Counted from the stretch's first letter, positions 33,722-61,160 are shown. The stretch: 64,000 nucleotides of DNA from Calditrichia bacterium (GCA_963777955.1 CAVZSQ010000013.1:448001-512000), one strand, 5' to 3'. Translations and numbers: made by a program. Notes: generated by a model from the letters alone, not told the origin.

Positions 33722-34447
33722 CTATTTGTTTGAACCAGAGGCAAAGGCATAACGACGGGTTTTACTGTTTAATCCCAGTCTTTGCAATTCACCCCGCACC
33801 ATCAGCCAGCCAACCTTCATAAAACCATAATCTATGGTATTCAGTTGCTTCTTTATTTTATAGGCTCCGTATTCCGGATTTTTTCTGACAATCATCTTTA
33901 TTTTTTCTATTAACGATAAATCAGCAGTGGCCATTTCACCTCTTTCGATAATTGTCTCCGTTACTCCGGTCGCAGCCGCTGTTTTAGAAGCACCTGTTCC
34001 CGTAGCAGCAGTTGCTGCCGTCTCTTTACCGGCAACCACTTCCGGCTTCTTGAAACTGACTTCTTTGGCTACAGGTTTGCCCGCCGATTCCAAAACTTCG
34101 AACTTGTTGATAGCTTCGTCAACTGTGTCGTATACATCCAGAATATGATGGAATTCCAGCAACTCAAATATTTCATATACATCCGGTACCATTCGTACTA
34201 ATTTCAGATCTCCACCATTTTCCCTGATGGATTTAATTTCACTGATAAAGATACCCCAGCCCGCGCTGCTGATATAATCCACATTTCCCAGATCCACCAC
34301 AATAAAGAATCGCCCCTGTTTTAATAAAGAATCTAAAGCTCGCTCCAATTCTGAAGACGTAGTGGTATCAATGTAGCCACCCACTTTAATTATTGAAATC
34401 TGATTTCTGCTCCCGGCAACTTCTGCTGATACCTGAATGCCTTCCAT
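33722..34447 (-). CDS. STAS anti-sigma-factor antagonist (RsbV/SpoIIAA type) with Ala/Thr linker and C-terminal HTH-like extension
   Basis: GYIDTTT, VDLGNVDYISSAGWG (phosphoacceptor Ser motif), GDLKL, VYEIFELL; about 65 aa C-terminal NPEYGAYKIKKQL module. Confidence 0.9.
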   Translation of the reverse strand: MEGIQVSAEVAGSRNQISIIKVGGYIDTTTSSELERALDSLLKQGRFFIVVDLGNVDYISSAGWGIFISEIKSIRENGGDLKLVRMVPDVYEIFELLEFHHILDVYDTVDEAINKFEVLESAGKPVAKEVSFKKPEVVAGKETAATAATGTGASKTAAATGVTETIIERGEMATADLSLIEKIKMIVRKNPEYGAYKIKKQLNTIDYGFMKVGWLMVRGELQRLGLNSKTRRYAFASGSNK

Positions 34448-34477
34448 TCAACTCCTCCTTAATCTGATTGGGACAAT

Positions 34478-37400
34478 CTAACCTTGGTTAGATTTCGATA
34501 GTAAATCGAGTATTGCCTTGTTCTTCAATAAATTTTTATTGGCAATTTTTTTACGTACTGCATCCAGATCAGATTGACCAGCTGAAACATCTTTGCTCGC
34601 CTTTTCTCTGATCTGCAGATTTTTTATCCCGACTTCGTTAATCTGTTCTAGTATTGTATTCAATAATATATTTTCTTTTTTTATGTATATCAACACTTCT
34701 TTAGCATTTTCAATAACAAACTGTTCTTCCAACTCCGCACTGTTCTCTGACAAAAATTCAATTACACTGATGACCTGGGTGAACAGTTGCCTTACATTCA
34801 GCATATCTTTTAAAAGATGGTGGGTGGATATAATTTTCAGGGATAGTACAATTTTTATAAAATCTTCCTTCTTAAAATTTCCGTCCGTCCAGTTTAAAAC
34901 GACATCATCGATTAATTTTAAATCATCCTGTATCGTATCGTAAAAAGTATCCAGTTTTTCCGGAGTGATTAGCTGAACAGGTGCAGCCAGCGTGGGCACT
35001 GTTTCTGCTTTCGGTTCTTCCGGAAGCGCCTGGAAAACATTTATCGGTACTGCCACCGAAGGTATTTTAGGCGGTGGAGTTGTTTCGACTTTGGATTCAA
35101 TACTCGCTTCCTTAACCGGTGCTGCAGGCGCTTTGAGTTTGCGGAGCCGCGGCGGAGTTATTTTAGCCTCTTTCGGCTTGTAAGTTTCTGTCTTGGTTTT
35201 AAAGTCAATCCTTGGTTCAGGAAGTTTTTCCTTGACCGGCGGTTTTTCGCTGACTGGTTGAATTGCATCTGCCGCAGGTATGCCCGCCTCAGCTGTTGCC
35301 GGTTCTTCAATTCTCTTTGAAACTAATTGTTTATCAGCAAACCTTTTTTCTGATTCCAGCGGCGGGGGCGGCATGAATTCAGCCGGTGCTTTGGTCCCGC
35401 GTTTTTCCGAAATAACTTTTTCTGCCGATTCATAATTCAGGATGACCTGGCCATCCAGGGTTAACAACGGTGTTCCGGGCAGTTTGATCCGCTTACGGCC
35501 GCCCCGCTTGATAAACGCTTCACGTTTTTCGGCAGTGGTCAGACGGGCATGTTTGAGTTCTTCGTAAATACGACGGGGTTCCAACAATGTAAAACTATAC
35601 TTTTCGGTATTCAATTCATCACTGATCCGCTTGGGCCCAAATTCAGGATTATTGCGTACTACTTCAAATAACTTGGTTTTATCTTCAATACTGATATGTT
35701 TTTTCTCGATATAATCTGTCTCATATAAAGCTTCCTTCAGTCCTTCCCAGCCAACTTCTTCTTTAATACGCTTGTACTTGCGGTACATATAAGGGGATAC
35801 CAGCATCTGCTCGCAGGCTTCTTTTACCGGAACCTTGACCTCTTCAATCAACCGGAACAGTTCCTTTTGAATGGCATATATGACTTCACCCTGCATTAAC
35901 TTTTCTTTGATCGCTACAAAAGTGATGTCATCGTTCTGAGGATATCCCTGGGTATGGTGTTTGATGTCGTCTTTCACCCGCTGGATGAATTCCGATACAT
36001 CATAGTTGGAAAACCGGCGAATTACATCCAGAAAGCGTTCTTCCCGGTATAATTCACGCTTGGGATTCATGGCTTCGGTAACACCATCGGTGTACAGAAC
36101 CAGCAGATCATCTTCCCGTAAACGTATTGTATCTGCCTGTATTTTCTGATCAAACAGGGTCAGATCCGGTAATTGAATACCTACCGGAAATCCGGATGGA
36201 TTTAAATAATAGGTCTGCTTGGTGCTGCCGCGATATAAGATCATCGGATTGTGGCCGGCACTGGCATAATGAATAATACGGTTACGGCTGTCCAGCACCA
36301 GATAAAACATGGTCACGAACATACCCCGCTTCATGTCATCGGTCACGAAACGGTTGACCTTGCTCAGTACATCGGCCGGATTTTTATTGCCGCGTGCTTC
36401 CAGACGCAGAGCAGTACGGATCATGGTCATGATCAACGATCCCGGTACGCCCTTTCCGGCCACATCGGCTACGCAGATACCGATCGTATCATTATCGACT
36501 TCCACGAAGTCGAACAGGTCTCCGCCCACTTCTTTGGCCGCTTCATAATAGGAGGCCAGTTCATACCCTTTTACCTGCGGGAAGTCGCTGGGCAATAACA
36601 TCTGCTGAATTTCCTGGGCAACCTGTAATTCTTTTTGCAGACGCTGCTGCTCGATCAGGTTAACCTGGGCCTCGCGGAACTTATTGGTCATCAGGTTAAA
36701 GGCCTGGGCAATTTCACCCAATTCGTCGGAAGCATCGATATCAATTTCGTCCTCATCGATGGTACCCTGGCCGACTTCCTTGACCCAATCAGCAAGGGAA
36801 TGGAAGGGGGTAACAATGCGGTCGATCAGAAAATAACTGCCTACATAACTGATTAAAAGAATTATTATAAGGTAAATGATCAGATTGGTTTTACTCTGAC
36901 TGGCCCGTGATTGGATATAATCGTCCGGGATCCAGATATGTGCCCAGCCGATTAATTCCCCCTGGCCGCGCAAACCGGTATGGATTTCGGCGGCAAAATC
37001 ATATAAGGTCAGAGTATCCTCAGCGGTATATTTATATACGCTCAGGTAGCGCAGAGTATCTCCGGTATCCACCACAGACTTCTTTTCGGGATAGTTATAA
37101 ATCCCCTGTGATTTTAGCGGTGTACTGCCGCTGACGATCTCCCGGGCCGAGTCGACAATGAATGTCTCATAAATCAGATCAGGATTATTTTTTTTGAGTG
37201 AATGAGCAAGGGAAAACAGATCCAGATACTGGTCTTTTTGTAAATATTCGGAACTATTATCGGCCAGCGAGAGGGACTGCACTTTGATGGTCTGGATTGC
37301 CTCATTCAGATTAGTTTCATCAACCTGAAAATACAATAATGAAAAGATGACTAAAGCTAAAAAGGTAATTATCACCGAAGCTGTAATGGTATGCCGTGTG

Positions 37401-37873
37401 CGCAGGGTCAGATCTTCCCAAAGGGCTTGCGGTTTGGTCTGCGGTATGACTTCACGCTGTTTGGTCAGACGTAATTCGTTGCCGCGGCTGGTAATATTGT
37501 ACTGGACATCATCCATCAACTTGCGCATCATGAAAATGCCCAGTCCACCCTTTTTACCGATCTGGATATATTTTTCCAGGTCCGGCGTGGAAGCCTGCCG
37601 CGGATCGTAACTGATACCCTGGTCGACGACAACGATGGTCAAACTCTGCCGGCGGACAATCGCCTTGATGGTGATCTCGCCGCCCTTGATATCACGGTAG
37701 CCATGGCGGATAATGTTCGTACAGGCTTCTTCGATAACCAGTTTGAAGGAGTTGATCAGGCGGTCTTCATATCTGTACTTTTTGCCGATGTGATCGATAA
37801 AATCCCTTACCTGGCCCAGATAACTCATCTGTGCCGGTATGGCGATCAATTCCTTTCTGACATTTCGAAACAT
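34478..37873 (-). CDS. Membrane-bound RsbW-type Ser kinase / periplasmic sensor / HAMP / SpoIIE (PP2C) phosphatase fusion with HTH-like, Pro-rich and helical C-terminal domains
   Basis: EEACTNIIRHGY, DQGISYDP, GGLGIFMMRKLMDDV (HATPase_c_2); two TMs; DELGEIAQAFN (HAMP); VGGDLFD, ADVAGKG, ASAGHNP, YTDGVTEA, DDIT (SpoIIE). Confidence 0.9.
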   Translation of the reverse strand: MFRNVRKELIAIPAQMSYLGQVRDFIDHIGKKYRYEDRLINSFKLVIEEACTNIIRHGYRDIKGGEITIKAIVRRQSLTIVVVDQGISYDPRQASTPDLEKYIQIGKKGGLGIFMMRKLMDDVQYNITSRGNELRLTKQREVIPQTKPQALWEDLTLRTRHTITASVIITFLALVIFSLLYFQVDETNLNEAIQTIKVQSLSLADNSSEYLQKDQYLDLFSLAHSLKKNNPDLIYETFIVDSAREIVSGSTPLKSQGIYNYPEKKSVVDTGDTLRYLSVYKYTAEDTLTLYDFAAEIHTGLRGQGELIGWAHIWIPDDYIQSRASQSKTNLIIYLIIILLISYVGSYFLIDRIVTPFHSLADWVKEVGQGTIDEDEIDIDASDELGEIAQAFNLMTNKFREAQVNLIEQQRLQKELQVAQEIQQMLLPSDFPQVKGYELASYYEAAKEVGGDLFDFVEVDNDTIGICVADVAGKGVPGSLIMTMIRTALRLEARGNKNPADVLSKVNRFVTDDMKRGMFVTMFYLVLDSRNRIIHYASAGHNPMILYRGSTKQTYYLNPSGFPVGIQLPDLTLFDQKIQADTIRLREDDLLVLYTDGVTEAMNPKRELYREERFLDVIRRFSNYDVSEFIQRVKDDIKHHTQGYPQNDDITFVAIKEKLMQGEVIYAIQKELFRLIEEVKVPVKEACEQMLVSPYMYRKYKRIKEEVGWEGLKEALYETDYIEKKHISIEDKTKLFEVVRNNPEFGPKRISDELNTEKYSFTLLEPRRIYEELKHARLTTAEKREAFIKRGGRKRIKLPGTPLLTLDGQVILNYESAEKVISEKRGTKAPAEFMPPPPLESEKRFADKQLVSKRIEEPATAEAGIPAADAIQPVSEKPPVKEKLPEPRIDFKTKTETYKPKEAKITPPRLRKLKAPAAPVKEASIESKVETTPPPKIPSVAVPINVFQALPEEPKAETVPTLAAPVQLITPEKLDTFYDTIQDDLKLIDDVVLNWTDGNFKKEDFIKIVLSLKIISTHHLLKDMLNVRQLFTQVISVIEFLSENSAELEEQFVIENAKEVLIYIKKENILLNTILEQINEVGIKNLQIREKASKDVSAGQSDLDAVRKKIANKNLLKNKAILDLLSKSNQG

Positions 37874-37882
37874 TTAATTGTC

Positions 37883-39783
37883 CTATTTATTTTGGCTGCG
37901 TTTCAGACGATCTTCCGCACCGCTGATCGCTTCCAGTACTTTTTTATTATAGGGGTGCTGTTTTAATATTTCCTGCCAGATCTCGATGGCTTCATTATAT
38001 CGTCCTAATAAAAACTTGTCCACCCCTTCCAGATAGCGGCGTTCGGCTTCCGGTTCCATTTTTTCCGTTTCGGCCAGTGCTTCAATCTTGGATTTGGTAT
38101 AATACTGGCGGATAAACTGATTGCCCGGATCCTGCGACAATACGTCCTCAAATATTTTCAAGGCGTCTTCGTATTGCCCGATATCAAATAACATCAAACC
38201 TTTCTGGATATTTTCCTGTAATTTAACTCTTTCAACTAATGTGTCAACCTCTTTTTTCACCTGCGAGTCATCGCTGCTGAGCAGGCGGGCTTCAGACAGC
38301 AGGCGCAGTGCTTCCGAATAATTTTCCTTCTCGAATTCCTGACGGGCCCGCAAGACCAGGGCATTGATATCCTCCCTCATCCGGCGCTGGGTGGTATTGA
38401 TCGCATCCCTGATCGGCTTATTCTCAGGATCACGTTCCAGCGCCTGATTAAAAGCAATTAAAGCCTCGGTGTACTGTTTTTTATCTAAGTATAATCGGCC
38501 TTTCTGGTACTGATCTTCAATAAATTTTTTATCAACTTCGGCGCGATTTTTATCGATGGCCGCTAAGATGGCCTGGTTCTGCCGATCGTCAATTTCCCGG
38601 CTCAATAAGACATTGGCCGAATCAAGCATGATCCTGGCTTGTTGATGGAAAGGCTCCTGGTTGATCACCTCGCGGTATTCAACCACGGCATCAAGATACT
38701 TCTTTTCCCTGAAATATGCATCTGCTTTCTGTAAATGGTCGGCAATGGATTTTTGTTTATCCGCTTCGCGAATTTCAGTAATGATGCGCTCCTCCTCCAA
38801 CCGTCTTCAATTCCTGTACGATGGCAAACATTTCATCGCGATTCATGCCAAAATTGGCCGTGAGTGAAATCCGGTGAATGGAAGACAACATGCCTTCGCT
38901 ACTGGGATTACCAAAGGCATAATCGATCTGGAACATACTGTATTGCACCCCGGCACCAAAAGCGATACCATTATTGCTATAACCTAACCGGACCCTGCCC
39001 ATATCCATAAAACTGTATTCAGTTCCAAAACCTACAGCCATGTCGGTATCCACGCTTTTGTCCAGATCCAGCAGTACATTCAGCGAATTACCTTCACCAA
39101 AAAAGGGGATCTTACGGGCATATACCAAAACGGAATACCAGCGGCAGAACATCAGCTGAACCACCTTCGCCCACCTGTGGCGGAAATAGATTTTCCAGAT
39201 TGAGACCTAACGACCAGTCACGCATATACGGGGAGAGACTGAAAGTCGGCCGGTACATTAATCCTAAATCCATGCCCACACCAACGCCTACTGTCTTGCC
39301 ATAACCGGTCAGACCGGGCCAGGCCGAGCGGTTTACTTTGACGGATAAACCGCCTGCCAGATCCCAGGGAAGTTTCAGACCATATGAAAAATACACCTGA
39401 TATCTTTCCCGCGAAAAGGTAGCCAGATCCTCAAAATTTCGATTGGTTTGGGGAATATCCCCAATTCCTATCCGTGCAATACCTATGGCGAAGGTACCCA
39501 GATCCAGGGTTGGATAGGCATATCCTAGAAAGTCATAAGAGGCACCTTCGTACAGGGAAGCATGAAATAAGGTCACGCTCTGCTGGTAGATGTAATCCAG
39601 ACCGGCCGGATTCCAATAAACAGCAGTGGGATCATCGGCCAGTGCTGTAAAGGCATTGCCCATGCCCATGGCCCGGGCCCCAAAGCCAAAATCAAACAAA
39701 CTGCGCGTGCCGGCCTGCCCATTTCCATCCTGGGCCATCAATATGCCGGGCAAGAATATCAGAAGTAATAAAAATTTCTTCAT
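37883..39783 (-). CDS. PorV/UPF0164-like outer-membrane barrel fused to C-terminal TPR domains; split into ORFs 39112-39822, 38775-39164 and 37883-38800 by two apparent +1 indels
   Basis: Signal peptide MKKFLLL, GARAMGMGNAFTALADDPTAVYWNPAGL, GMDLGLMY, IDYAF...IHRISL; then TPR repeats (YTEALIAFNQALERDPEN). Confidence 0.8.
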
Positions 39784-39835
39784 AGGCATACCCTGTATAT
39801 ACTTATAACTTTTAATTCTCATCTCGACAACTCAC

Positions 39836-42800
39836 TTATTTTAGATAAGCAATTTTTGTGATATAGGTCTGTGTCGCTCCACCGCCGACAGGTTTGATTT
39901 GCAACTGACACAGATATACATCATTAAGCACCGTTTTCCCGCGGTCATTTTTACCATCCCACTTGATATCATCATATGATCCACGAGATCTTCTATCCTT
40001 TTTCGTCCAGACCAATCCTCCGGTCAGAGTAAAGATACGTATTTCAATAGTCGGAATCCTGCTCCAGATATACCAGGATTATGGTTTCGTCTTCATTCCG
40101 GCCAAATGGATTAGGATAATTCCGGAATGCTTCTTTGGAATTATGGGGTACACGACTAATCACCCCCGATCTGCCACCCATCGCTTTGAGGCACTCTTCC
40201 ATCTGGACCCGCCACATCCAAGGACCATATGCGGGATTTACATCATAGGCATAAATATCGAGCAGTACACATCTGAAACTGCGATTGGTAGCGTCTAGAT
40301 TTAAATTTAGCCAGTACTATCACTGTATCCTCTAGTACCTGCAGCCATGACTGAATCACTCCGGTGAATGGGAAGGAATAATGGATTCCCACGTACTCAT
40401 TAGTAATGTCAAGCGAACCAAATTCTATTGCGTCCTTGGCCAGAGCCTGTAATTCATGGTAACGATCCAGATTAACCAGCGTCAAGGATTCAAACATATT
40501 GACCAAAGTTGAAGTCATCAACGTATCGTCACTGCTGGCACCAATAAAAGACAAGTTTTAAATTCTTAAGGGTCACATCATTCTGCAGCCCCGCTAAATC
40601 CAGCATTCGAAATTTCAAAAGCCAATAAGGGTGCATTATCGTCACCGCGTCTGGAACATTTGATTTTCGATCAGGGAATCGGTCAGATTGGTAACTATTA
40701 TACTTCTTTTTCTCAGTGCTGATTGAGAATGACCTGCTGCTGTTACTTGCATCAACATATGCAGGATCGCCACTGTTACGGTCATCCGGTACACCCGGAT
40801 CAGGGTAAAAGTTATAGTTTTGGCAAATACCGTGGTGTCTGGCGCCAGAACACTCCAGATTACCAGGGTATCATCAATGGCAAAGGTGCGAATACTAGTC
40901 TGGTGGTGTTAAAGTAAATATATCCGGCCGTGAGATCTTTACCTGGCATAGACCGGTAACATCAGCCATACCAGTAATACCGTTAAGATCCCTTTCTACC
41001 TTGGTACGGAATTCAATTGTCTGGCCCACTGAAACCAGGCCGTTCTTTGCGGTTTCCGGTGAACTAATTTCTGCCGTCAACATAACCCGGGCGTACGGCT
41101 GCACCAGAATAGAATCATTAACCGTCTGACTTTCTATCTCAGTTCCACTGTTATTATCTGTTACCCAGGCTGTTAGACTAAATCTTTGCATAATTGCACT
41201 GAGCAGAGTTTTTTCACTCCTGATATTCCAGGTGATTACCTTTGTATCCGGAATATATTGCACCGGATTGCTAACAATGAGTCCCGTACCAGGAGGCAAT
41301 GATATTACAGCACGCATATTTGTTACATTGGCGCTGAAATCGAAATAGCGGGTGTAGGTAAAAGTCTGCCCTGCCGATACAGTATCCGCAGGATTGCCGC
41401 CGAGAATTGATATTTCAGCTATGGTTTCCGTGGTAACCGGGATTAATACCTGCCGTACCGCAGCATTGGCCGGCCGCAAGGTATTTTCATCCAGCGGGGT
41501 TGTATCGATCCGGATAGCAATCGATCCGGCTCCCGTTGTCTCAGCCTGTTGTTTCAACGCAACCGAAAGTTCGTTCAGCAATCTCTGCTGTTCCGCTGCC
41601 GCTACGCTGTTCTGCTGGCCATAAGCGCTTCTGGAACTGGTGGCTCCAAGTTTGGACAGTATTTCACTGATCGGCGAGGCAGCATTTTTATTTATGGTAG
41701 TGGTATTGGCATCGATCCACCAGCTGACCGTATCACCGACTGTATAGGTTTTCTGAACAGCATTATCCGTACAACTGCTGCAAAGGCTGAACAGAGAATC
41801 ATCAACTTGTACTGAGATCAAACCCTGGCTGCCGGGAACAATATTGGCCGTACCGGCTCGACTGATATTAGCCCGGATCCTGAACTGCTGACCTTCGGAA
41901 ACACTGCCATCTCTTGCACCAACCGGTTCTACAATAGCCGCTGTAAATACAATACTGGCCTTGGTTATAGTTTGAATGGCCAGCGTGGCATTCGTACTGA
42001 CCGGTGTCAGATTTGCATCGGCATTGAAATTCGCTGAGGCCAACAGGTTCAGCACTGACCAGTCGCTGGCATCTTTCGGAGCCCGGATATACCAGGACAA
42101 ATCATAAACACTCTGCTGAACGTTCAGGAGCTGGCGAATTAAACTGCTATCCTGCGTGGAATAACCTTCTCCGACCGGCAATTGCAGTTTAACCTGGCGG
42201 TTATGGTCAAGCAAGGGATGAAAAGTCACCCGGGCATCTATCCGGATGGAATCCTGATCGGTCGAGACAGTAACACTGTCATTCGTAACGGGACTGCTGA
42301 ACTGTATGGAATTTATTACAATGGAGGCCTGGATCGCATTCACCAGTAACTGGCTGCCGAATGAGTTGATCACGGCATCCTGACCGGTGTTCTGGTCAAC
42401 AGGATAAATCAACTGTGATATCATCAGGGTATCATTAATACCAGCCGTCTGTGCCAGCGATTGTACCAGCCAGCTGACCGAGCGATTGCTAAATGTATAA
42501 GAAGTGTCGGCGGCGGATAAGATCTGGTAATTGGCGGGAACATTCAGGCGTAATAATCCCGGACTAAATGTTGCCGTGCCGCTACTGGTGACATTTAATC
42601 GTACATAGAACCGCTGTCCAACCGCCACGGTCGAATTTGTATCCCCGCTCAGCGTGGTGACTGTACTGCTCAAAGTCAGCACCGCCGGCATATCGGCATG
42701 AACCTGCGCGGTATTTTGAAGTCGGTTGCCCTATACTGATCGGTTGGCCGGTGGTGGCATCAATCGCTGAAACAATTCTGGCCAGGTAAGTATAATCACC

Positions 42801-45800
42801 AGCAAGCGGAATGCTATCCCGGTAGGTATATATGTATTGAGAAGCGGGGGATATATTCTCCGCCAGGACTATCTGGCTTAGCAGATTATTATTGCGAAGT
42901 ATATCGAAAGTCACACTCTTGGCTGTATCGGTTCCGCTGTTGGTTATAAACAACTGCAACTGGAAGGGACGATTTACGTTGACTTTTGGCTTATTGGGTG
43001 CAAGACTATTCCGGACCATGATCAGGCTGTCAATTTTCAGAGCAGCAGGTAATACCACCAGCACGGTATCGGGGCTGCCGGTAAAATTAAATGTATCGAC
43101 CAGAGCCGGAGTACGCTGATCACTGTACCAGACACCCGGTTGCATTACGATTACTCCCGTATCAGCCTGGGCATTCAGCGTAAATGCAGCAGAATAAGGC
43201 CGGCTGTTCCCGGCCGGCAGGATATCCGGTAATGTCGGACTCAATGCGGATGAAATCCAGTTGGCCGATACATCCTTGTTATCACTGGTCCTGCGAAAAT
43301 AAGGTATGATATTTTTTATATCTGCAGTAGAATTACCGCTATTCTGCAGGGTATAAGATACCTGGATATTTTCCTGTCCCTGCCGGACCATATCAGGTAA
43401 CAGATTGAAACTGGTAACCGTAATGGTTGCCGGCTGCAGAATCCGGATGGTGTTCAGACTTACCGTTTCGCGCAGGGTATCTCCGCTGATCTGGATTCCG
43501 ACAACACGCAGGGTAACCGCATAGTCGCTGTTGACCGCCTCGCCCGCCGGAATCATCAATGGTTGAAATTCGATCCAACTGGAATCCTGCGCCAACAGCA
43601 CATAATTGGCCGAAGGATATGTACGCTGGGGTGTGGAAAACCCAAATTCCAGGTAAGAAAGTTCCTTCACGATGGACAGCGAAGCGGTACCCGAATCGTA
43701 CAAACTGATGGTGAATGGGACATTCTGTCTGGGCACCACGCTGGCCGGAGTCAGGGTATTACTCATGTATGTAACCCTGGCGCCGATCAGTACTCTGAAA
43801 CTGGTTATCGGCTGCAGAGATGTTTTAATGATATTTCCGCTGTTCAGGCTCAGCCGGGCAAAAACATTAATCCGTCCAAGCGGAAAATCCTGCGGAACAT
43901 CAAAGACAAAACGTAATTCATTATTGGGTATAGTCTGCAATACTGTAAGCGAATCGGCCCGGCTAATTGTAGATACCAGCAATTCATTTTGTGCCTCATC
44001 CTTAAAAATCAATCTGGTACCGAGTGAATCGATTGGTATTGGAGCTCCATTATTTTCAACCTGCATGATCACCGTGACATTTGACTGACCCTGCAAAACG
44101 TACCCGGGGGAAACCCGTGCCGGGCCGAAGATAATTTGCCCGCCGATCGTGATCTGCCCGGCCTCGATTTGCTGAACATATGAACTGCCATTGCTCCAGC
44201 CGGCTAAAGTAATTGTAACCGGATAATCACCCGCCGGGACGCCGGTTATTAAAGTTTGTCTGAATGCAAGTAAAGTACTGTCAAGCCCGTTCAGAGTTTG
44301 ATCGGAGGTACCGGCCAGCGGAATAGCATAGACCGTCCCGTTAATACTTAAAGTAGTCCGGGCTGAATCAAGAGCAATACCTGCCTGACCGTTGTTATAA
44401 AATCGGGCTGTGAGTTGAACTGTTGTATCGACTCCGAATCCCGCCGGTTGAATGTTAAGCCAGAGAGGATCCGCCGGAGTCTGCAGAAAAATATTGTGCT
44501 GGGCGCCGGCAGAAATCGGAGCCTGGGAATTTACATCTATACCGGAGACCGAAACGCTGGCCTGCACATCCCCAAGAATACCATTGGCCGCGATAATGTA
44601 AAAACGAATGGTGTCGGAACTGTTTCCGGCAAGTATGTACGGCGTCGAACGATTATCCAGTATGTAACGCTGGAACCTTGAATCTGCCGTGCTGAACGTC
44701 ATGGAGATATTCTCGATCCTGGCCGGCGAAATACCGCCATTGCGGAATTGAATGACAGCCAGTACGCTGTCCTGATTCCAGCTGACCGTATCCGGAGTAA
44801 GGTCAAAGCTTAATATATTTAAAGCGGCAATATTTTGAACACTCAGAGTATCCCTGCTGGCTGCCGTGGTGATATTAAATGGCTGATAGTCATTAGCATC
44901 ACTGTAGGTAATAAAGCCGTCGACAAAATAACTACCAATCGTCGCCAGCGGGGAGACCGAAACATTATAGTCGATTACAGTGCTCTGTCCGGCTGTGAGA
45001 AATAATGGTATAGAAGGCGTTGATCTCCGGCTTATGACAAAGTTGCCATCGGCATTCGCCGCGCCTAACATCATATTCAGATCGACACTATCAAGTCGCG
45101 CCGTGGCGCCACTTTGATTGACAATGGTTAAACTGGCCGTCAGACCGGTTTGGCCGGTACTGGCCACATCAGGAGTAATCGCTGCCGACTGCAGTACCAC
45201 AACCGGACGTGTCTGCACCGTCCAATTGTCTGTAGTTACGGCTCCGCTCAGGAGAATAGTCTGGCCTGATGATATCTCCGTGGCCTGTATGCGGGCATCG
45301 ATTGTCTCCAGGCCCAGCATAGCCGTTGGCTGTACAGAAACCTGAATGGTGAAAATCTGTGAAGTGCCTGCATTCAGCACCACCGGTAATGCCGGTAATG
45401 CTTGTGCAGTCGTATAATTTGCCAGGCCATTGGCAAACATCAACAGCACGCTATCCACCCGGATGGCGGTACCCCCTAGATTCCGTAAAGTGACCGAAAC
45501 CGGAATGTCAGCCTGACCACGACTGACCAGTTGAGGAGTCGTGATCACGGACGCAATCTCCATATTCGATACTGATTGCACCTGCCAGATCCAATTTGCG
45601 CTGCTGGTAAATTCAGCACTCGCGCCGGAAACCTGGTTCGTGTAAGCAACCTGGGCCCGTAAAGTATCATACCCCACTGCTGAATTACCGGCTACATTGA
45701 TTGTATCTACCAGTATTCTCGTGCTGTTGCCATTCAGGATAATGGGTAATAATGGCCGGCGCTGGGTATACAGACCGATCTTACTGGTCAGGTTCAATGA

Positions 45801-48800
45801 GTTAACCTGCACGGCAGCCTGTCCGCTATTGACCATTCTGATATAAACCAGAATATCACTCTGACCCTGAACCACATATGGCAGCGAGTAGATCGAATCG
45901 ACGGTCACATTCGGCTGGGTGAGCAGGAACCAGTTGTCCGTCACAGCCCCGGATACATCCTGTACCCGCTGGTTGCTGTTGATATCATATCCGTAGACCT
46001 GTGCCGAGATTGTGGTGTTGCCGGCCGGAGCACTGCCCGGAATATGTACGCGCAAATCAAAAGCCCTCGTTCCGCCGCCGTTTACTGTAAACGGCAAGGC
46101 GGGAGTAACTGCCAGGGGATCTCCGTAAGGAATCGTCCGTAATGTATCTATAACCACAGATGCCTGTCCGGTATTACCAATCGTTACCGTCAGGGTTGTA
46201 TCCATATTTTGAGTTACCGTATCAGTACTGACCACCAAACCCTGGACAATTGTGTTTGCCACCGTTTGAATACGCAATGAATCACCCAGGATGATGGTAC
46301 GATCAAAACTTGAACTATTTTCATGTCCGACCAGCCGGAGTGAGTATGGGTATATACCCGCTGCTGCGGTCATGGCCGCCTGGTTAAATTGCAGGTTCGG
46401 AGTACTATTCCCGGGAATGACTGTAAAATTCTGAACAGGGAAACTTTGTCCGTCAACCTGCAACCTGGTCAAACTTGTATCCAGATCCAAATCTGCCTGG
46501 CCGGTGTTCTGCAATTGCACTTCCGGTTGAATTAACTGATTCCGGGAGATCAATGTGGGAGTAACAGCACTGTAAACTATATTTACGGCACGCTGGATCA
46601 GCCAGCTGTCAGTGGTATCAGCACCAACATCGGAAACCGGGGAGTCTGTAAAAGTATCCCGGCCATATACCGACGCATTGATCATTTCCACACCGCTCGG
46701 AGAGGCAGCATTCAGTTGAACCAGGAATTGAATGGCAGTGGTCGACGCACTGTCCAGAGTAATAGCCGGTTGTTGAAAAACCGTAGCCGGAATATATAAT
46801 CCGCGAATTGTATTTAACCGCACGGAATCGATTACCACAGAATTATTTCCGGAATTGGCCACCCGGAGCAGAACCCGGATGCTATCCTGGCCGGTACTCA
46901 CAGTATCCAGATCAGCCTGTACGGCAAGGATATTCACCCCTCCTGAACCAAAAACCTGCCAGGCCGAAAGATACGCGGATGTATGCGTTCCGTCCTGAGT
47001 GCGGTTTACTTCCTGGAATTGCACTCCGCCGCGCAAAGAATCAACACCAAGGGGTGCCGTAGTAAGCACATCCACATCGTAGGTGATCGTGTCCTGTTGA
47101 CCGCCATCGATGAAGAATGGAAAAGTCGGCGCGATTAATTCACGATTATAATAAGTATTACCATTTCTGAAATTAAGCGTAACCGAATTCAGCTGAGCAC
47201 GGGCTTGTCCATAATTGCGTACCGCCAGCGTTGTGGCAATATCATTTTGACCCTGGCGGACTGAAGCAGGATTGGTAATAGCAAACACGCGGACATCAGC
47301 AGGTGTCTGCAGCAGAATTGAATCGGTTTGTACACTTCCCAGGACATTCACACTTGAACCTGTAATCTGATCGGTTCCAAATGCATTCAGATTCAAAGTA
47401 ATGTAACCACTGTCTAGCGGCGTTGCACTGGCAGTCAACCGGAACTGAGCAGTAATCCTTTGGCCGGCATTCAGCAGATAAGGTATATTAGGCGCCATTA
47501 ATTGAGCGGATAGTATCGGATGAATAACTATACCATCAAAAGTCATTTGCAAAGTATTCAGTTGAACCGCTGCGTCCCCGGTATTGCCGATTACCGCATA
47601 GGCCAATACGCCGGTTTGACCCAGAGTCATGCTCGTGGTTGCCGTATAAACACTGTCGATCACCAATGCGGCCTGATTGCCAATCCTCCAGGTCTTGGGA
47701 GTGACTGCACCACTGTCCACATAACTGGCGGTCAGATTATTGGCATCCCGGTATCTGACAAAACCATCCACCCATATCGTATCACCAATTACTGAATTTG
47801 ATATATCCACATTATAAAATATGGTATCTCTCTCCCCTCCGGACAGTGAATCTTTTAGTGTGGCGATCAGGATCGAATCAATTATGGAACCTGCCGGTAC
47901 GCCATACAGGCCGGTGGTATCCATGTAAGCAGTAGCCAATCCCTGATTGCGAATTTGCATTTCCACCAGCAGATTCTGCTGACCCCGGTTGACCTGCGGA
48001 TAACTGTTGCGGATTGACGTGATCACGATCTGGGGTGCTGACTGAACCAGCCAGGCATCAAGGTAAGCACTCTGGTCTGCTGCGATTGCCCCGGTACGCT
48101 GATTGCGGCCGATAACAAATCCGCGAATGGAATCGATCCCTGTCGCAGCAAAGGTGTTTATGGTTACCGTAAAATCAAACTGCTGCGTCGATAACGGAGC
48201 AATGGTAAACGGCAGTACGGGCGCAGTTAATGTTACCAGATTATTATTGTTCAAAAATTGCAATCCGATGCTGTCAGCGGCGCCGATGCGTGCTCCCACC
48301 TGGCCGGTATTAGTAATCTGCATCTGAATAGTTAAACCGGCCTGGCCCTGACTGACCCTGCTGGCAATGGCATTAATAGACATAATATCAAGATTGGCCC
48401 GGCTCAAGACCGTCCAGGTATCATAAATAACAGGATTATTCAGCACATAAGTACTGCCGCTATTCTGATCCTGATAAGTGACCGCTACCCGGAAAGTATC
48501 TAATCCGGTGGCAGCATTCTCAGCAATATCTATTGTATAGTTAATAAGTGCCGAATCACCGCCATTGATTGTTAGTGGGAAAATAATTCCGGACGGTGCC
48601 AGGGTATATGTAGAGTTATAGTCAAAGACTATATCAGCGGCACTATTGATCCGTGCCGTCGCATTACCGCTATTCCGAACCCGAACCGCAATACTTTGAT
48701 CCTGTTCACCCTGACTCACATTGATATCACTTAACAGGATGGAAGAAAGAATTAAACTGCTTGGTGATTGAACCTCAAGTTCATCTCCCGGAGCTGTAAG

Positions 48801-51800
48801 CAGAGTACCGCTGTAAGGCACCCCATTCTCAGTTCCGTTCAGGATCAACGTACCGGAATAACTTCCCTGTGCCAGGCTGATATTTGCGGCAGCGAACCGC
48901 AGGATAGAATTAGTAGCTGCGGTAATTGCCTGATCTCCGTTGAGAGTAAAAGTCTGCGTACCGAAAGTCAGCGTTGTTTGCGCCTGCTGGAGCAGGACAT
49001 TCGCATCTCCGGTGTTGTTTACTGTAACCTCGAATGAGGCCGGCTGCCCGTTTGATACGGTTTGTGGTGTGTAACTGACCAGGGCAACTTGTGCAGCATT
49101 AATGATTGTAAACGAGTCCGTGGTAATAGACGAATTGTCATACACAAAATTGCCATTGACCGCCAGTGTCCCGGAGATATATCCATCCACCTGCACATTA
49201 CCGAGAGTAGCACTGACCGGTACTGCCACACGGAACGAAAAACTCGCCTGGGCTTTTGCCGGGATATTAACCGGATTGGCCGGAGCGGGTATTAAGGTAA
49301 AACCTAACTCCGGATTAAAAACCAGCGCAGGATTCAGGTTCTGCAGAAGATAAGCGCTATTATTTTGAACTACCATGGTGATATCGGGTATGGTATCACC
49401 CAGACTTACAATATTACCCGCTAAACCAATAATGGTAACAGAGCGAATAACCAGCGGCTCGATTGCTAATTCAGCCGGCGATGAGTTTAACGTACCATTT
49501 ATCGTTTCTCCGCCTGACGTAGCATCAAAAGTGAATGCCGGGGTATAATCACCCATAATAAAATTATCCGCGATAATTCCATCAATAAATTTAAGCCGGA
49601 CTGTATTCGATCGTGCAGGCATCGCCGCCGGTGAATCCAGTTGCGCCGTGGTAGTATTGATGCCATCCGAGAAACTTAAATATGTATTAGCCAGGTTTAA
49701 ATTGACAACATCCGGACCTGGATTGGAAAAATCTGCATAAAAAGTTAATGTATCACCCGGTAAACCGACCTTGGGATTAAGTGAATTACTATTATATCTG
49801 ACAGCATAGACATTGAATGTGGTGGTATCGTTTGCTCCGATGATATAAGCGCGGGCAATACTCGAATCTAAATTAGCCGGTGGAAAATATACACTCTGGG
49901 CCAGGCCCGAACTATTCGTGCTGGTTATCGGATTGGATACACGCGTTGCCGGTAAAAATCCGACTGAACGGTTGGCCACCAGATTATTATACTGATCCCT
50001 GACTTCGGCCTGCAAAAGCCGTCCGCTGCCGGCAAAGGTTGTCCGGTTATTGCCGGTAATTGAAGTAATATTAACTGCCGCACCTGGTATAACAGTTGCC
50101 CGGAATAAAGCAGGATCCGCACCTGAAGAAGTGGCTCTGAGCGTATCATAACCAGCCTGGGTTCTCAGGACCCAATTCGCCTGAGCATAGCCGCCGGAAT
50201 TAGTCAGCAAGCCGGCATTGACTGTATCACCATCAGCAGTGTTAGTCCAGTCGATCGTTGCACCTGAAACCGGATTCATATACTGATCAACAAGCCGGAT
50301 CCTCACCGCTAAAGCCAACTGGGTTCCGGCCACACCTGACTGCTGATTGCCGGAGTACAGGATAAGCGAATCCCCTACATCGGCCAGTGCTGTGGCTTGA
50401 AACAGAATCTGACCGGGATCGAGTGTATTATTCATCGCCACAACAACATAATTTCCAATTTTGGATCCCATGGTAAAAGTAGTTTGAGCCAAACCACTGG
50501 CGTTGGTCTGTGTTTGAATCGGATTGAGCGAGTAATCCCCGCCTCCATCCGGTAAAGCTAACATACCAAAGGCAATGGTAACTCCGGATACCGGATTACC
50601 CAGACTATCCGCAACCCTGACCACCATAGGCAGGGGTAAATTAGTTCCAACAACACCCGTTTGATTGTTACCTGAAACTAAGATCAGACTATCGGCAGAT
50701 GACGAACCTACAATTGCATAAAATGCCGCTGTAGCGGGTATACTGGCCACAGTGGCATAAGCAGTATCGGCACCCAGGCTGCTGCGCAAACGCCAGTTAG
50801 CACCGGCATAACCTGAATTATCAGTAATATTTATTGCCGGAATCGAGCTGGCCGCTGGACGAAGGAGTAGTCCAGTTTACGGTAATATTTGGCACCGGAT
50901 TGGTAAAACGATCGATAACCCGTATCCGCGGCGGATCGGAGACGAATGAACTGGCCGAACCGGTCTGCACAAAACCGCCGCCGACAATTATTATTGAGTC
51001 GGGATTTGCCGGACGTACCCGGATCAAACCTGAAATATCGCCTAATACAGTATGACGAGCTCTGAAAATTGCAGAATTGACCGTCCGGAAATAAAACCGG
51101 TTAAATGTCGCTGAATCTGAGTTGGCAAAGAAACCGATCGGATCGCCATCGGTTGACCATAAAACTCTCTGGTCACCTAAATAATTATTTTCCAGATCAT
51201 AACCGGCGGCATAAAGGGCAACCGAATCGCCGGCAATCCGGGTTAAAGTGTCCAGTTCGATCCCGCCGCCGCCAGGCCCTGTGCGGATGATCAGTTTTGT
51301 CAAACCGCCGGGCTGGATGACGATTGTTCCGGTTGAATCATTATTCCAACCTGAACTGTTGGTTGTATAAATAAATCCGTTGCCTGGTGCAATCGGGAAA
51401 ATATTCAAGTTAGAGGTATTGGTGCTGTCGGTAAATCCTGATATTGTTCCGGTCTTTTGCCAGTCTACATTTACATCCGATACATAATTGCTGTTTACAT
51501 CGTAGCCGGCGGAATAGAAATGAAGATTATCGCCGACGACGATCGTATCAGCAGCAAACTCTGCTCCGGCACCGTCAGGTGCATCACGTATGACTAGTGA
51601 GGCCACGGTACCTGTCCCAACCGTAATTAAACCTGTATAATCAAGAATACTTGGATTGCTTGTACTTATGGCCCGGATCAGACCTGAACCAAGTGTTGTT
51701 GCATCGAATACAATGCTGTCCAGTAAATTAGCAGTTATGAATTGTCCGATCGGGGCATTTAAAAACCAGTTTGCATTCCTGGTGCCTAGATAATTACCAT

Positions 51801-54800
51801 AAAGATCATAACCGACCGCATACAATGTTAAAGTCTGATCCGTGGTCAGTGTCGTGTCATCAAACGCCTGACCTGCCGTGCGTATTGTCTGTATTTTTAA
51901 TTCTGCCAATGTCCCGCTAGTAATTGTAATAGTACCTGTTGAATCAGGAGTTACACCGCCAATAGAACTGGTGGCGATGATCCGCCCGGCATCGGGTGCG
52001 ATACTCGGAGAAAAGACATAAGAACTTCCGGAACCTGAAACTGAATTGGCTAATCCGATCTCCGACCAATTGACTGTAACATTGCCCGTGTAATTTGCAT
52101 ACTGGTCGTATCCCGCTGCATAGAATACAATTGAACTTGTGACAGTAATGGTTGAATCAGCAAATTCTACTCCCTGATTATTATTTGCTGTTCGTATGCG
52201 CACATAATCAAGACTATTGGACGTAATCGTGATTAGCCCGCTCACCCCCTGCTTGGCGTGATCTGACTGGCTCCAGCCGGTCAGCGTAAAACTCTCCGCG
52301 GTATTGTCATATACCTGAAACGTCGCTACTCCCGCCGTTAAACTCTGACTCGCCGGCGTCTCTATAACATTGGCACTGCTGCCGATTAATTCCACCACCG
52401 TGCTGTTATCGCTGCTTACTAAATTGTTATTGCCGTCATAGGCACGGACCACTACGTTTATATTCACCCCGGCCAGCGCACTGTATACCGCCGGCGTCAC
52501 CGTGTAGTACGATATGCCTCCCGCTGTTCCCGTCACCGTGAACACTATACTATCCGCAGGACTGCTCACTATCACCGCCGCCACCAGGTTCGCACCCGCT
52601 ACCGCTCCGGTCGTTAACGTCGCCTCCGCTATGCCATTGGCACCGCTGCTTACCGTGCGCACTCCCAAACCACCTAAATTTCCGCCGCCGCTTATTACCC
52701 GGTATCTGATACTCTCATTATTCACTACATTACCATACGCATCCGTCACCAATGAACGCAGTAACTGATCCGTTCCTGCCACCACGCTCACTCCGCTACC
52801 GCTCGATACCGACAGGTTCGTCGCCGCATTCGAACTGACCGTCACTACCCCGCTAACCCCCTGCTTGGCGTGATCTGACTGGCTCCAGCCGGTCAGCGTA
52901 AAACTCTCCGCGGTATTGTCATATACCTGAAACGTCGCTACTCCCGCCGTTAAACTCTGACTCGCCGGCGTCTCTATAACATTGGCACTGCTGCCGATTA
53001 ATTCCACCACCGTGCTGTTATCGCTGCTTACTAAATTGTTATTGCCGTCATAGGCACGGACCACTACGTTTATATTCACCCCGGCCAGAGCACTGTATAC
53101 CGCCGGCGTCACCGTGTAGTACGATATGCCTCCCGCTGTTCCCGTCACCGTGAACACTATACTATCCGCAGGACTGCTCACTATCACCGCCGCCACCAGG
53201 TTCGCACCCGCTACCGCTCCGGTCGTTAACGTCGCCTCCGCTATGCCATTGGCACCGCTGCTCACCGTGCGCACTCCCAAACCACCTAAATTTCCGCCGC
53301 CGCTTATTACCCGGTATCTGATACTCTCATTATTCACTACATTACCATACGCATCCGTCACCAATGAACGCAGTAACTGATCCGTTCCTGCCACCACGCT
53401 CACTCCGCTACCGCTCGATACCGACAGGTTCGTCGCCGCATTCGAACTGACCGTCACTACCCCGCTAACCCCCTGCTTGGCGTGATCTGACTGGCTCCAG
53501 CCGGTCAGCGTAAAACTCTCCGCGGTATTGTCATATACCTGAAACGTCGCTACTCCCGCCGTTAAACTCTGACTCGCCGGCGTCTCTATAACATTGGCAC
53601 TGCTGCCGATTAATTCCACCACCGTGCTGTTATCGCTGCTTACTAAATTGTTATTGCCGTCATAGGCACGGACCACTACGTTTATATTCACCCCGGCCAG
53701 CGCACTGTATACCGCCGGCGTCACCGTGTAGTACGATATGCCTCCCGCTGTTCCCGTCACCGTGAACACTATACTATCCGCAGGACTGCTCACTATCACC
53801 GCCGCCACCAGGTTCGCACCCGCTACCGCTCCGGTCGTTAACGTCGCCTCCGCTATGCCATTGGCACCGCTGCTCACCGTGCGCACTCCCAAACCACCTA
53901 AATTTCCGCCGCCGCTTATTACCCGGTATCTGATACTCTCATTATTCACTACATTACCATACGCATCCGTCACCAATGAACGCAGTAACTGATCCGTTCC
54001 CGCCACCACGCTCACTCCGCTACCGCTCGATACCGACAGGTTCGTCGCCGCATTCGAACTGACCGTCACTACCCCGCTAACCCCCTGCTTGGCGTGATCT
54101 GACTGGCTCCAGCCGGTCAGCGTAAAACTCTCCGCTGTATTGTCATATACCTGAAACGTCGCTACTCCCGCCGTTAAACTCTGACTCGCCGGCGTCTCTA
54201 TAACATTCGCACTGCTGCCGATTAATTCCACCACCGTGCTGTTATCGCTGCTCACTAAATTGTTATTGCCGTCATAGGCACGTACCACTACGTTTATATT
54301 CACCCCGGCCAGCGCACTGTATACCGCCGGCGTCACCGTGTAGTACGATATGCCTCCCGCTGTTCCCGTCACCGTGAACACTATACTATCCGCAGGACTG
54401 CTCACTATCACCGCCGCCACCAGGTTCGCACCCGCTACCGCTCCGGTCGTTAACGTCGCCTCCGCTATGCCATTGGCACCGCTGCTCACCGTGCGCACTC
54501 CCAAACCACCTAAATTTCCGCCGCCGCTTATTACCCGGTATCTGATACTCTCATTATTCACTACATTACCATACGCATCCGTCACCAATGAACGCAGTAA
54601 CTGATCCGTTCCTGCCACCACGCTCACTCCGCTACCGCTCGATACCGACAGGTTCGTCGCCGCATTCGAACTGACCGTCACTACCCCGCTAACCCCCTGC
54701 TTGGCGTGATCTGACTGGCTCCAGCCGGTCAGCGTAAAACTCTCCGCGGTATTGTCATATACCTGAAACGTCGCTACTCCCGCCGTTAAACTCTGACTCG

Positions 54801-57340
54801 CCGGCGTCTCTATAACATTCGCACTGCTGCCGATTAATTCCACCACCGTGCTGTTATCGCTGCTCACTAAATTGTTATTGCCGTCATAGGCACGTACCAC
54901 TACGTTTATATTCACCCCGGCCAGCGCACTGTATACCGCCGGCGTCACCGTGTAGTACGATATGCCTCCCGCTGTTCCCGTCACCGTGAACACTATACTA
55001 TCCGCAGGACTGCTCACTATCACCGCCGCCACCAGGTTCGCACCCGCTACCGCTCCGGTCGTTAACGTCGCCTCCGCTATGCCATTGGCACCGCTGCTCA
55101 CCGTGCGCACTCCCAAACCACCTAAATTTCCGCCGCCGCTTATTACCCGGTATCTGATACTCTCATTATTCACTACATTACCATACGCATCCGTCACCAA
55201 TGAACGCAGTAACTGATCCGTTCCGGCCACCACGCTCACTCCGCTACCGCTCGATACCGACAGGTTCGTCGCCGCATTCGAACTGACCGTCACTACCCCG
55301 CTAACCCCCTGCTTGGCGTGATCTGACTGGCTCCAGCCGGTCAGCGTAAAACTCTCCGCGGTATTGTCATATACCTGAAACGTCGCTACTCCCGCCGTTA
55401 AACTCTGACTCGCCGGCGTCTCTATAACATTGGCACTGCTGCCGATTAATTCCACCACCGTGCTGTTATCGCTGCTCACTAAATTGTTATTGCCGTCATA
55501 GGCACGTACCACTACGTTTATATTCACCCCGGCCAGCGCACTGTATACCGCCGGCGTCACCGTGTAGTACGATATGCCTCCCGGTATCCCCGTTATCGTA
55601 AAACGAAATGAGTCAGACGGGCTGCTGACCAGGATAGCGGTAACCTGGTTCGTACCGGCCGTGGAGCCGGTAGTGAATGTCGCTTCTGCCAAACCATTGA
55701 CATTGGTGATCTTAAAAACGTTGGATGCTCCCTCCAGGTTTCCATTCCCGCTGCGTACAATGAAATTGACAGTTTGGCTGCTTTTAGCGTTACCGAAAGT
55801 ATCCGTAACGGCGACCCGTAAAAGTTGATTTGTACCTGCAATGACAGAACCATTACCGCTCTGGTACAAAAGGGTATCAGCGCCGCCGGCAGCGACTGTT
55901 ACCAGCGCGCTGGTTCCGCTGACCGAGGTATTATATTTACTGCGGGCTGTAAAAGTAAGATTTTCCGCTGCAGAATCTGCAAAAGTAAAACTGGCTACTC
56001 CTGCGCTAAGATTATCTTCCGTCGCACTGAGACGTACGCGGGATCCGGTAGTTAAAAATTCAACGGTTGTGGTATCATCCCAGCTGACCAGGTTATCTCC
56101 GGCATCATAGGCACTGACCGTGACAGACACATTTGTTCCCGCTGTTGTACTCAGCACCGCCGGGACAACAGTATAATAAGCGATCAACTCCGGTAAAACG
56201 GTTACGCTGTATCCGCCATTAGTAGTGTTGACCGCAGAACTGGTACCGATAGCAGCGTCGATAGTGGATGTGAAATTACCTGAGCCGGTCTGCGCTGAAC
56301 CATTTTCCAGAAAAGTAACTACCACGGAATCTTTGATAGCAAAATATGATGTCTTAATTACCAGACTATCACCGGTGGGATAGTACCACCACGAGGCAAA
56401 TTGCGGCGCGGTCGGCCGGCTTTGACTGCGTTGAATAAAATAACTGGAACCGTCAATATTAACGGATACTACAGAAATGGATTCATCCGTAAAAGGGTTG
56501 TTAATCACCACATGATCGGCTTTACCCATATTCGAAGTCGAGGAAGAAATACTGGTAATTCTGTATACATATTCATTGGAAGATGATGCCCGCAGTACCG
56601 TATCCGGGTTTATACTCGCTGTCGCGGAATTTACATCGTCGCCATACCAGATGATAGACATGGAATCCAGAACAGCCGGTGTGTCATTATTGGCGAATTG
56701 CAGACCTATCGTACCATCACTGTTTTCTGTTCCAATCGTGGCTGCCCCGAGTGAATCGTCCATTGCGGCCAGATAGTTGAAAACAAATTCATTGGTGGAT
56801 TCAGATAAAATTATTTGAAAATAATATGAACCGGCCTGAGTGATGTCAACACAGAAGTCGTTCCATTGAACGATAAACTTGCGGTAAGGAGCAGTACCGA
56901 TCGTTTGATAATAAACGTCAGAAAACGCAGTCTCCGCTGCGGAATCTTATTGCACTCCAGCCAGCTGCCATGATATTATTAGGTACATTAACATTTGGAA
57001 CGCCGTCATCATTCTGGTCCTCATAACTGGTGGCGATAGAAGTGAAATCGATGAATCCACCTGTACTGATCCACACCTGAGAATAATCTGTGCCATAATA
57101 ATTAAAGTTAAAACCGATCGATATGGGGCCCCTGAAGTCATCCGAGACTACAAAATCTGCCTGTGATCCCGCCAGCACATCTTGCCAGGTGAAAGGTATT
57201 GTAGCACCACTGGCCAGCGAGGTTTTCCAGCGGTAACCATAACTATCCGGGCCTCCGCTGGGCGATGTAGCCAGTTGGGCAATTGCAGCAGTACTGAGTG
57301 AAAGTACTATCAGAATTGATAATATCTTCGCAAGTTTCAT
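39836..57340 (-). CDS. Giant (~5,800 aa) secreted Ig-repeat surface protein/adhesin with nidogen-like N-terminal domain, Big_1-like repeats and FlgD-Ig/T9SS-like C-terminal domain; fragmented into ORFs 56918-57340, 50821-56763, 42582-50789, 40895-42691, 40243-40554 and smaller pieces
   Basis: Signal peptide; GPISIGFNFNYYG...VYYQTIGTAPYRKFIVQW; VTDAYGN/VADSLGNPV Big_1-like motifs; C-terminal NYPNPF...WDGKNDRGKTVLNDVY...TKIAYLK*; each junction examined is repaired by deleting one base. Confidence 0.8.
52237..55582 (-). repeat. About 5.5 near-identical tandem copies of a 612-bp (204-aa, two Ig-like domains) unit within the giant protein gene
   Basis: Identical antisense ORFs at 52514, 53126, 53738, 54350 and 54962 (612-bp period); degenerate extra copy at about 55583-56190. 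Confidence 0.97.
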
Positions 57341-57352
57341 AGTTATATCTCA

Positions 57353-57877: not shown

Positions 57878-57992
57878 TATGTTGTACTCCTTATTTTTAT
57901 AAAAAATACAATACTTGATAAAGCAATTTTACATATTCGTGTCATCGTAGTGGTGATAAAAAGCACATTTCACAGTCAGGATTATTTACTGA

Positions 57993-60971: not shown

Positions 60972-61160
60972 CCAGGCTATGTTATTCCGTTTAGGTAATG
61001 TCCTGCCTCTGGCCCACGCTCGAAGATTTTCTTCGGACTAATCTGCGGTATCAATTGAATTGATACAAATATATTTAAATGTATATCACTGTCCTAAATA
61101 TACTACCAAAATCAGTCCAGTTAAAGTACAAACTCGTAGTCCTTACAATACACTCATTTA

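Follow-up and report, generated by a model that had tools for sequence, protein, structure and literature searches.

A partner switch in which a membrane sensor and both of its candidate substrates carry a helix-turn-helix (HTH) module of the type found in the N-terminus of IS481 transposases was identified from a 64,000-nt stretch of DNA of a Calditrichia bacterium (GCA_963777955.1 CAVZSQ010000013.1:448001-512000; hereafter the window, on which coordinates are based unless another locus is named). Two of the hosts are neighbouring genes, one encoding a sensor that unites an RsbW-type kinase with a SpoIIE-type phosphatase and the other an anti-sigma-antagonist-type STAS protein, STAS1. The third, STAS2, lies outside the window at C26:62669-63493, in an exopolysaccharide (EPS) cluster. 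The module is an old, fixed domain and not a mobile element, and represents an ancient addition to a known type of switch; no description of this sensor/STAS-HTH system was found in searches of an open-access library.

Homology of the modules and their transposase ancestry

A whole-protein BLASTP comparison aligned STAS1 with residues 711-787 of the sensor at 24/77 identities (31%; E 3e-8), and the local score of 86 between the STAS1 tail and the sensor was not reached in any of 2000 shuffles of the latter (mean 32, maximum 55). A first-pass annotation of this DNA had proposed that the same transposase-like HTH module was grafted in frame onto both proteins, and the homology of the two segments, their positions and their reading frames were all upheld. 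The complete bipartite head was found in the sensor only, the STAS proteins possessing just its second HTH, and the further copy on STAS2 had been missed.

Sequence profiles support an IS481-type transposase ancestry for the bipartite unit, as that annotation had suggested. IS481 was the best-scoring insertion sequence (IS) family for the sensor region (NF033577 positions 4-115, E 3.2e-8, a score far under that model's whole-protein cut-off), with IS3 at E 0.002. The likeness is that of a collinear two-HTH unit, in which HTH_28/HTH_29 of Pfam is followed by HTH_32/HTH_21. Matches to individual Pfam families were sub-threshold, with HTH_32, HTH_23, HTH_Tnp_1, HTH_28 and HTH_29 detected in 17-20 of 24 sensor regions, and the first HTH of 17-19 of the 24 orthologues matching HTH_23, HTH_28 or HTH_29 with E values of 0.1 or lower, down to 1e-7. 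HTH_21 was detected, again at E<=0.1, in 29 of 66 modules; for that of STAS1 the value was E 2.2e-4, under the cut-off. IS481-like transposases for comparison were taken from relatives, three of them passing the family cut-off, and a sensor profile run against 168 frames matched the N-termini of these three at 4e-12 to 1e-10. With hhalign, the 115-aa sensor region aligned with the N-terminus of a true IS481 transposase (L197) at 96.9% (E 1.9e-10) over 109 columns, the collinearity including the spacing and the fourth helix; the 64-aa module by itself reached 18% (E 1e-3) against the same protein. The sensor unit differs from the IS481 head in its altered linker, and in all three host classes helices 2 and 3 are separated by a short insertion that is conserved.

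AlphaFold models contained two HTH units in the sensor region and a four-helix HTH without a wing for the STAS module (predicted local distance difference test score, 94). The top fold match of the bipartite model was the I-beta/gamma region of MuA transposase, with a middling VIA-align Z of 6.9 (root-mean-square deviation 12.5, 118 aligned residues); Tc3 scored Z 5.6, and in the Foldseek ranking TnsB stood first, with an E of 0.1. The single STAS module gave similarly middling values against generic HTH proteins (RpoN box and ArgR, Z 5.0-5.7). Foldseek returned no match at E<=0.001 for either the bipartite or the single-module model, the best E in a sequence search of the PDB was only 0.011, and in the ESM Atlas the module gave no usable match whilst full-length STAS2 retrieved only unannotated Calditrichota STAS clusters. 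As the structural scores are middling, the transposase claim rests on the sequence profiles.

Other hallmarks of an insertion sequence were absent, in agreement with what had been noted at the outset. Neither a six-frame search of the window nor a search of 84 sensors of near-full length detected an IS481 catalytic (DDE) domain, whereas the same profile picked up a DDE frame at another place in the genome (E 7e-24). Neither module is flanked by a pair of sequences resembling terminal repeats, and no target duplication was seen; from the true IS481 of a relative (L197) the same tool recovered 37-nt terminal arms. Mobility was likewise not seen, the same three host genes and positions recurring across relatives. 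A short likeness between the L197 terminal repeat and a box before the EPS operon of this genome amounts to one AT-rich coincidence and was given no weight.

Distribution and phylogeny

With the STAS1 tail as the only query, matches were obtained in 84 of the 86 Calditrichota genomes, three apiece in 56, and none of the 53 good-quality genomes lacked one. A module profile matched every one of 121 sampled genomes of a second phylum (a tally that includes genome G164), 117 of them three or more times; a single protein name points to this phylum being KSB1. The module is thus conserved in relatives, which in the first phylum carry Calditrichota names and include Caldithrix abyssi. The linker between the STAS domain and the module varies freely while the module is kept. 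In a further lineage the sensor and one STAS module were present at separate loci in 16 of 21 genomes. A search of a library of 1.84 billion entries yielded 585 matches, the best 150 of which comprised 57 sensors or fragments thereof, 50 STAS-module proteins, 37 short pieces with the module at their end and six unrelated repeat proteins; none of these 150 contained a DDE domain.

A module tree was inferred from 64 columns, with 18 random rows per host class and 10 transposases, and was left unrooted. STAS1 and STAS2 modules grouped together (100/99), and the transposases fell on one side (78/95), closest to the sensor copies. This topology is weakly consistent with one capture, after which the second HTH would have been copied onto an ancestral STAS protein that later duplicated, and this describes the history better than the grafting onto both proteins first envisaged. 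With 64 columns and 10 transposases, the tree cannot fix the donor or the root. Some second-phylum genomes (G180, G138 and G194) had two sensor-length matches, the second G180 copy (L187) being without an adjacent STAS gene. Four proteins (P0248, P0270, P0122 and P0250) carry tandem transposase-type HTH units without a catalytic domain, and are possible other re-uses of the same head.

Domain organization and gene neighbourhoods

The features of the window are collected in Table 1. The sensor runs from its RsbW-type kinase through a transmembrane (TM) helix, an outer domain, a second TM helix and HAMP to the SpoIIE phosphatase, followed by the bipartite HTH, a Pro/Glu-rich linker and a helical tail. 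TM helices were assigned from hydropathy, and HAMP was matched at E 9.5e-9. The short motif that follows the second HTH is situated where a transposase chain would run on into its catalytic domain. In the STAS domain, the S60/S61 pair was invariant in both paralogues (32 and 60 aligned sequences); we take S61 to be the phospho-acceptor of STAS1 from its likeness to the RsbV/SpoIIAA motif.

Table 1. Features of the sensor operon and its leader in the window
Feature	Position (nt)	Strand	Description
STAS1 gene	33722..34447	-	241 aa; anti-sigma-antagonist-type STAS domain, variable linker, C-terminal HTH module
STAS1 HTH module	33734..33925	-	aa 175-238; four-helix HTH equivalent to second HTH of IS481-type N-terminus
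STAS domain of STAS1	34112..34408	-	aa 14-112; Pfam STAS, E 4.5e-20
Presumed phospho-acceptor S61 of STAS1	34265-34267	-	within S60/S61 pair
Membrane sensor gene	34478..37873	-	1131 aa; neighbour of STAS1 gene
Short motif 3' of sensor second HTH	35450..35491	-	aa 795-808; nearly invariant columns in sensor alignment
Sensor second HTH	35504..35695	-	aa 727-790; homologous to STAS modules
Sensor first HTH (HTH_28/23/29-like)	35720..35863	-	~aa 671-718; in sensor only, not in STAS proteins
Sensor SpoIIE/PP2C phosphatase	35906..36493	-	aa 461-656; Pfam E 4.7e-50; metal-binding motifs present
Sensor TM1 to HAMP	36680..37393	-	TM1 ~aa 161-185, extracytoplasmic domain, TM2 ~aa 329-354, HAMP aa 348-398
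Sensor HATPase_c_2 (RsbW-type serine kinase)	37460..37840	-	aa 12-138; Pfam E 2e-27; N-box, G1 and G2 motifs present
PorV/UPF0164-like plus TPR gene	37883..39822	-	upstream of sensor; three frames here, one gene of 630-670 aa in relatives
Genes for a small secreted protein and a giant surface protein (the latter in several frames)	40895..57877	-	head of sensor operon
Palindromic box, operon leader	57952..57967	-	conserved

A gene for a protein of 630-670 aa precedes the sensor in 31 of 36 loci, with TPR matches in all seven tested and weak PorV/UPF0164 matches in the window, and before it stands a gene for a giant secreted protein. In the relative L035, the giant surface protein gave C-terminal CHU_C/FlgD_ig matches at E about 1e-4. 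Both the giant surface-protein gene (39963-57340) and the PorV-like/TPR gene are single frames in most relatives and are split here, probably owing to sequence errors in the assembly. The giant protein contains several near-identical tandem repeats of ~200 aa (window 50821-56763). A 382-aa TPR protein (window 58092-59240) is kept just before the giant-protein operon in both phyla, and is a candidate further component.

STAS2 is encoded between a WcaJ-type sugar transferase and wza. Across 31 STAS2 loci from both phyla, which include close kin, the gene directly after STAS2 had a Poly_export match (wza) in 30, and the gene following wza was Wzc-like in all nine tested; in the second phylum STAS2 is preceded by a glycogen-synthase-like gene. 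A metagenomic third lineage encodes, likewise in an EPS cluster, a STAS protein with two modules (L259:2365-3537; P0123 and P0126), in which a coiled coil links a STAS-type to a sensor-type module. Its gene sits amongst wzz-like, TPR and tyrosine-kinase genes and is followed by one for a look-alike of the 382-aa TPR protein (L259:3497-4648).

Integrity of the switch and comparison with known systems

Of 84 sensors, 71-83 have the kinase motifs and 77-83 those of PP2C, and both STAS proteins scored over the TIGR00377 cut-off. No SigB/F/G factor was found over the cut-off in 86 Calditrichota genomes (three weak matches) or at E<=1e-50 in 121 second-phylum genomes, the same search giving its signal in B. 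subtilis. This genome encodes 15 sigma-70-family matches, 10 STAS proteins and four RsbW-type proteins. The mean net charge of the 64-aa module was +7.8 for STAS1 (n=109) and +9.3 for STAS2 (n=82), and the last helix of STAS2 carries R58, R60 and R63 in 99-100% of sequences. As judged from these compositions, the charge pattern would fit nucleic-acid binding by the STAS modules better than a charge-driven docking. A structure prediction for a STAS1 homodimer scored 0.00 (mark 0.42) and counts neither way.

The RsbU/RsbV/RsbW-SigB and SpoIIE/SpoIIAA/SpoIIAB-SigF systems are established partner switches, of which SiaABC and HenR/All4160 are sigma-free variants. The present system has the same three catalytic and substrate domain types as the RsbU/V/W and SpoIIE systems, but its kinase and phosphatase are fused in a membrane protein, no SigB/F/G was found and HTH domains have been added.

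Closer parallels are provided by two sigma-free circuits. In CapK/CapS as reported (Chambers et al. 2026, PMC13373217), CapS is a repressor composed of STAS and winged HTH domains, acts as a DNA-binding STAS homodimer that responds to phosphorylation, and is released through phosphorylation by CapK, an anti-sigma-type kinase with its own HTH; CapK is a soluble HTH-STAS-GHKL protein, activated by single-stranded DNA and encoded beside immune operons. The present system has in common with it the succession of a STAS and an HTH-type domain, the conserved serine, the presence of an HTH on a GHKL kinase of anti-sigma type, and a circuit without a sigma factor. It differs in that the HTH is of IS481 type, all-helical without a wing in the model and common to enzyme and substrates, whereas that of CapS is winged; the kinase is part of a GHKL-TM-TM-HAMP-SpoIIE-HTH membrane sensor with a fused PP2C domain; and there are two STAS paralogues, with surface-protein and EPS genes in place of immune operons as neighbours. 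CapK/CapS is the closest working model, though architecture, signal and context differ. SypE of Vibrio fischeri is described as an RsbW-type kinase and PP2C phosphatase in one protein under receiver-domain control, and SypA as a bare STAS protein with its gene in an exopolysaccharide locus and no known sigma target (PMC4517449, PMC10120452, PMC8256260). The union of kinase and phosphatase in one chain and the position of a STAS gene within an EPS locus are shared with this pair as so described; unlike SypE, the sensor has no receiver match and has TM-HAMP instead, and unlike SypA, the STAS proteins carry their own HTH. A third case is HenR/All4160, reported as another sigma-free polysaccharide switch (bioRxiv). 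In its workings the system resembles CapK/CapS, SypE/SypA and HenR/All4160 but belongs to none of them, nor is it an IS481 element.

Leader elements and the search for a target

A Gibbs search of the leaders of 20 giant-protein operons returned a palindrome of 15.3 bits, compared with 12.0-12.4 bits in two shuffles. The pattern drawn from it recurred in all but one of 16 Calditrichota leaders (15 of 16), and 14 of 15 still had at least 10 bits when left out; it was not evident in four second-phylum leaders. The matrix, for which only giant-protein leaders served as training set, also reached at least 10 in 14 of the 23 leaders of the EPS operon, where shuffles would give 0.8, and did so in 40 of 2081 intergenic gaps genome-wide. 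Besides the box in the window (Table 1), this genome has a copy in the EPS-operon leader (G000:C26:61283-61298, plus strand). The giant surface-protein and EPS operons are probably co-regulated, and the leader sequences suggest a shared CRP-family regulon for the cell surface. Since the palindrome has what we take to be the appearance of a CRP/FNR site, and CRP-family genes are present (in 68 of 71 genomes, with two proteins bearing a CRP-type recognition helix in this one), it provides no evidence for the module's target.

A 21-nt element was found in 84 of 86 Calditrichota genomes (G000:C26:61418-61438; L031 ~7418-7438; L227-L256), and at 10 of the 23 Calditrichota STAS2 loci it stands immediately ahead of that gene. 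It also precedes a second NusG gene and other polysaccharide-export genes, and was set aside as a target of the HTH. Two or more NusG-type genes were present in 48 of 56 genomes, and the element is probably the phylum's ops-like antitermination site for an RfaH/UpxY-type paralogue, its likeness to ops being our assumption. A sigma-54-type -24/-12 site was located 58-115 nt upstream of STAS2 in six of eight second-phylum leaders (L177, L178, L182, L185, L191 and L194) and in none of 23 Calditrichota STAS2 leaders. No module-specific target site was found amongst the conserved leader elements, upstream of the gene for the 382-aa TPR protein no motif exceeded the shuffled controls, and no palindromic box was present in window 60972-61273.

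Proposed mechanism and its alternatives

The reading that we favour, with a confidence about evenly poised between right and wrong, is that of a sigma-free switch akin to CapK/CapS and SypE/SypA, in which the STAS-HTH proteins would be the nucleic-acid-binding outputs of a surface programme. A signal at the extracytoplasmic domain of the sensor would pass through HAMP and shift the balance between the RsbW-type kinase and the SpoIIE phosphatase, whose activities are presumed from their domains. This balance would set the phosphorylation of the conserved serine on STAS1, encoded next door, and on STAS2 in the EPS operon; both are putative substrates because of their operon position, shared STAS subfamily and co-occurrence. 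By analogy with the winged HTH of CapS, the STAS HTH would then bind nucleic acid, most likely DNA, according to phosphorylation state, and such binding may tune the polysaccharide and giant surface-protein operons, the direction of control being likewise conjectural. The sensor has retained the complete bipartite unit, its first HTH still resembling a DNA reader. A bolder version, in which a single domestication before the Calditrichota/KSB1 split gave rise to STAS-HTH transcription factors and a membrane-tethered DNA-binding sensor that run both operons directly, with the palindrome or an adjacent site as operator, is tentative and clearly the less probable of the two.

Several observations weigh against a nucleic-acid-binding output. 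Each conserved leader element has a more ordinary candidate reader in the CRP family, a NusG paralogue or sigma-54, and an extracytoplasmic function (ECF) or FliA-type sigma factor may be the target after all, given the 15 sigma-70-family matches and the eight other STAS and three other RsbW-type proteins of this genome. The recognition (third) helix of the STAS modules starts with aromatic residues (in STAS1, W in 82% and F in 70%), which is unusual for base-reading, and the STAS proteins have one HTH only. The sensor is membrane-bound, its second HTH bears far less positive charge (+3.0) and has Y-E-E in the third helix, and the basic inter-HTH linker of transposases has been replaced. Alternatively, the modules may have ceased to read DNA and be docking or specificity tags, by which the sensor would find its two cognate STAS proteins, or the TPR proteins of the operon, and the switch would stay separate from the other STAS/RsbW pairs of the cell. 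The module is confined to these three partners, the eight other STAS proteins being without it; the surfaces that distinguish the classes are conserved, with aromatic residues in the STAS modules and acidic ones on the third helix of the sensor; and the third-lineage proteins P0123 and P0126 join both module types in one chain. Both module types are net positive, however, and the sensor retains a first HTH with a typical transposase-like DNA-reading helix, which docking would not need; we consider this explanation doubtful and less probable than the favoured one. A SypA-like post-transcriptional output, in which the unphosphorylated STAS protein acts on RNA leaders or on the Wzc/TPR machinery and the module, basic and aromatic, serves as an RNA- or protein-binding surface, seems unlikely. 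The EPS operon has STAS2 as a constant member, the surroundings of the third-lineage STAS gene would suit such a role, and neither SypA nor All4160 is reported to need a sigma factor for its control of polysaccharide; the ancestry of the module, however, lies in a domain that binds double-stranded DNA ends, and no RNA motif could be linked to it.

A further explanation concerns only the origin of the module. It could be an ordinary HTH that resembles transposase heads through deep ancestry or convergence, or one that transposases took up from regulators, as might be argued from the weak match of the lone module to IS481, its fold in common with many HTH regulators, the lack of DDE domains in the best 150 of 585 library matches and the unrooted tree. 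Against this stand the collinearity of the two-HTH unit with IS481, the transposase HTH families at the top of both Pfam and NCBIfam lists, and the wide distribution of IS481 compared with a module limited, in the searches made, to a few related lineages; we regard it as slightly less probable again than a post-transcriptional output. Automatic names of the Joint Genome Institute (JGI) place 'transposase' on some sensors and fragments, as would suit a recent or functionless insertion-sequence scar, but a module that is in frame, devoid of a DDE domain and terminal repeats, and kept at the same position in three copies with invariant residues in two phyla makes a scar scarcely credible.

Implications

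The domestication of transposases into core signalling is familiar in eukaryotes, as in the Pax paired domain, and has rarely been documented in bacteria; here a module of this kind is near-universal in two phyla. SypA and All4160, STAS proteins that act downstream of a kinase in polysaccharide control, have long been without a known output, and STAS1 and STAS2 carry a candidate output domain. Caldithrix abyssi offers a cultured host within the family. If the switch that we favour operates as proposed, the logic of CapK/CapS would extend from immunity to envelope sensing and biofilm-type programmes.

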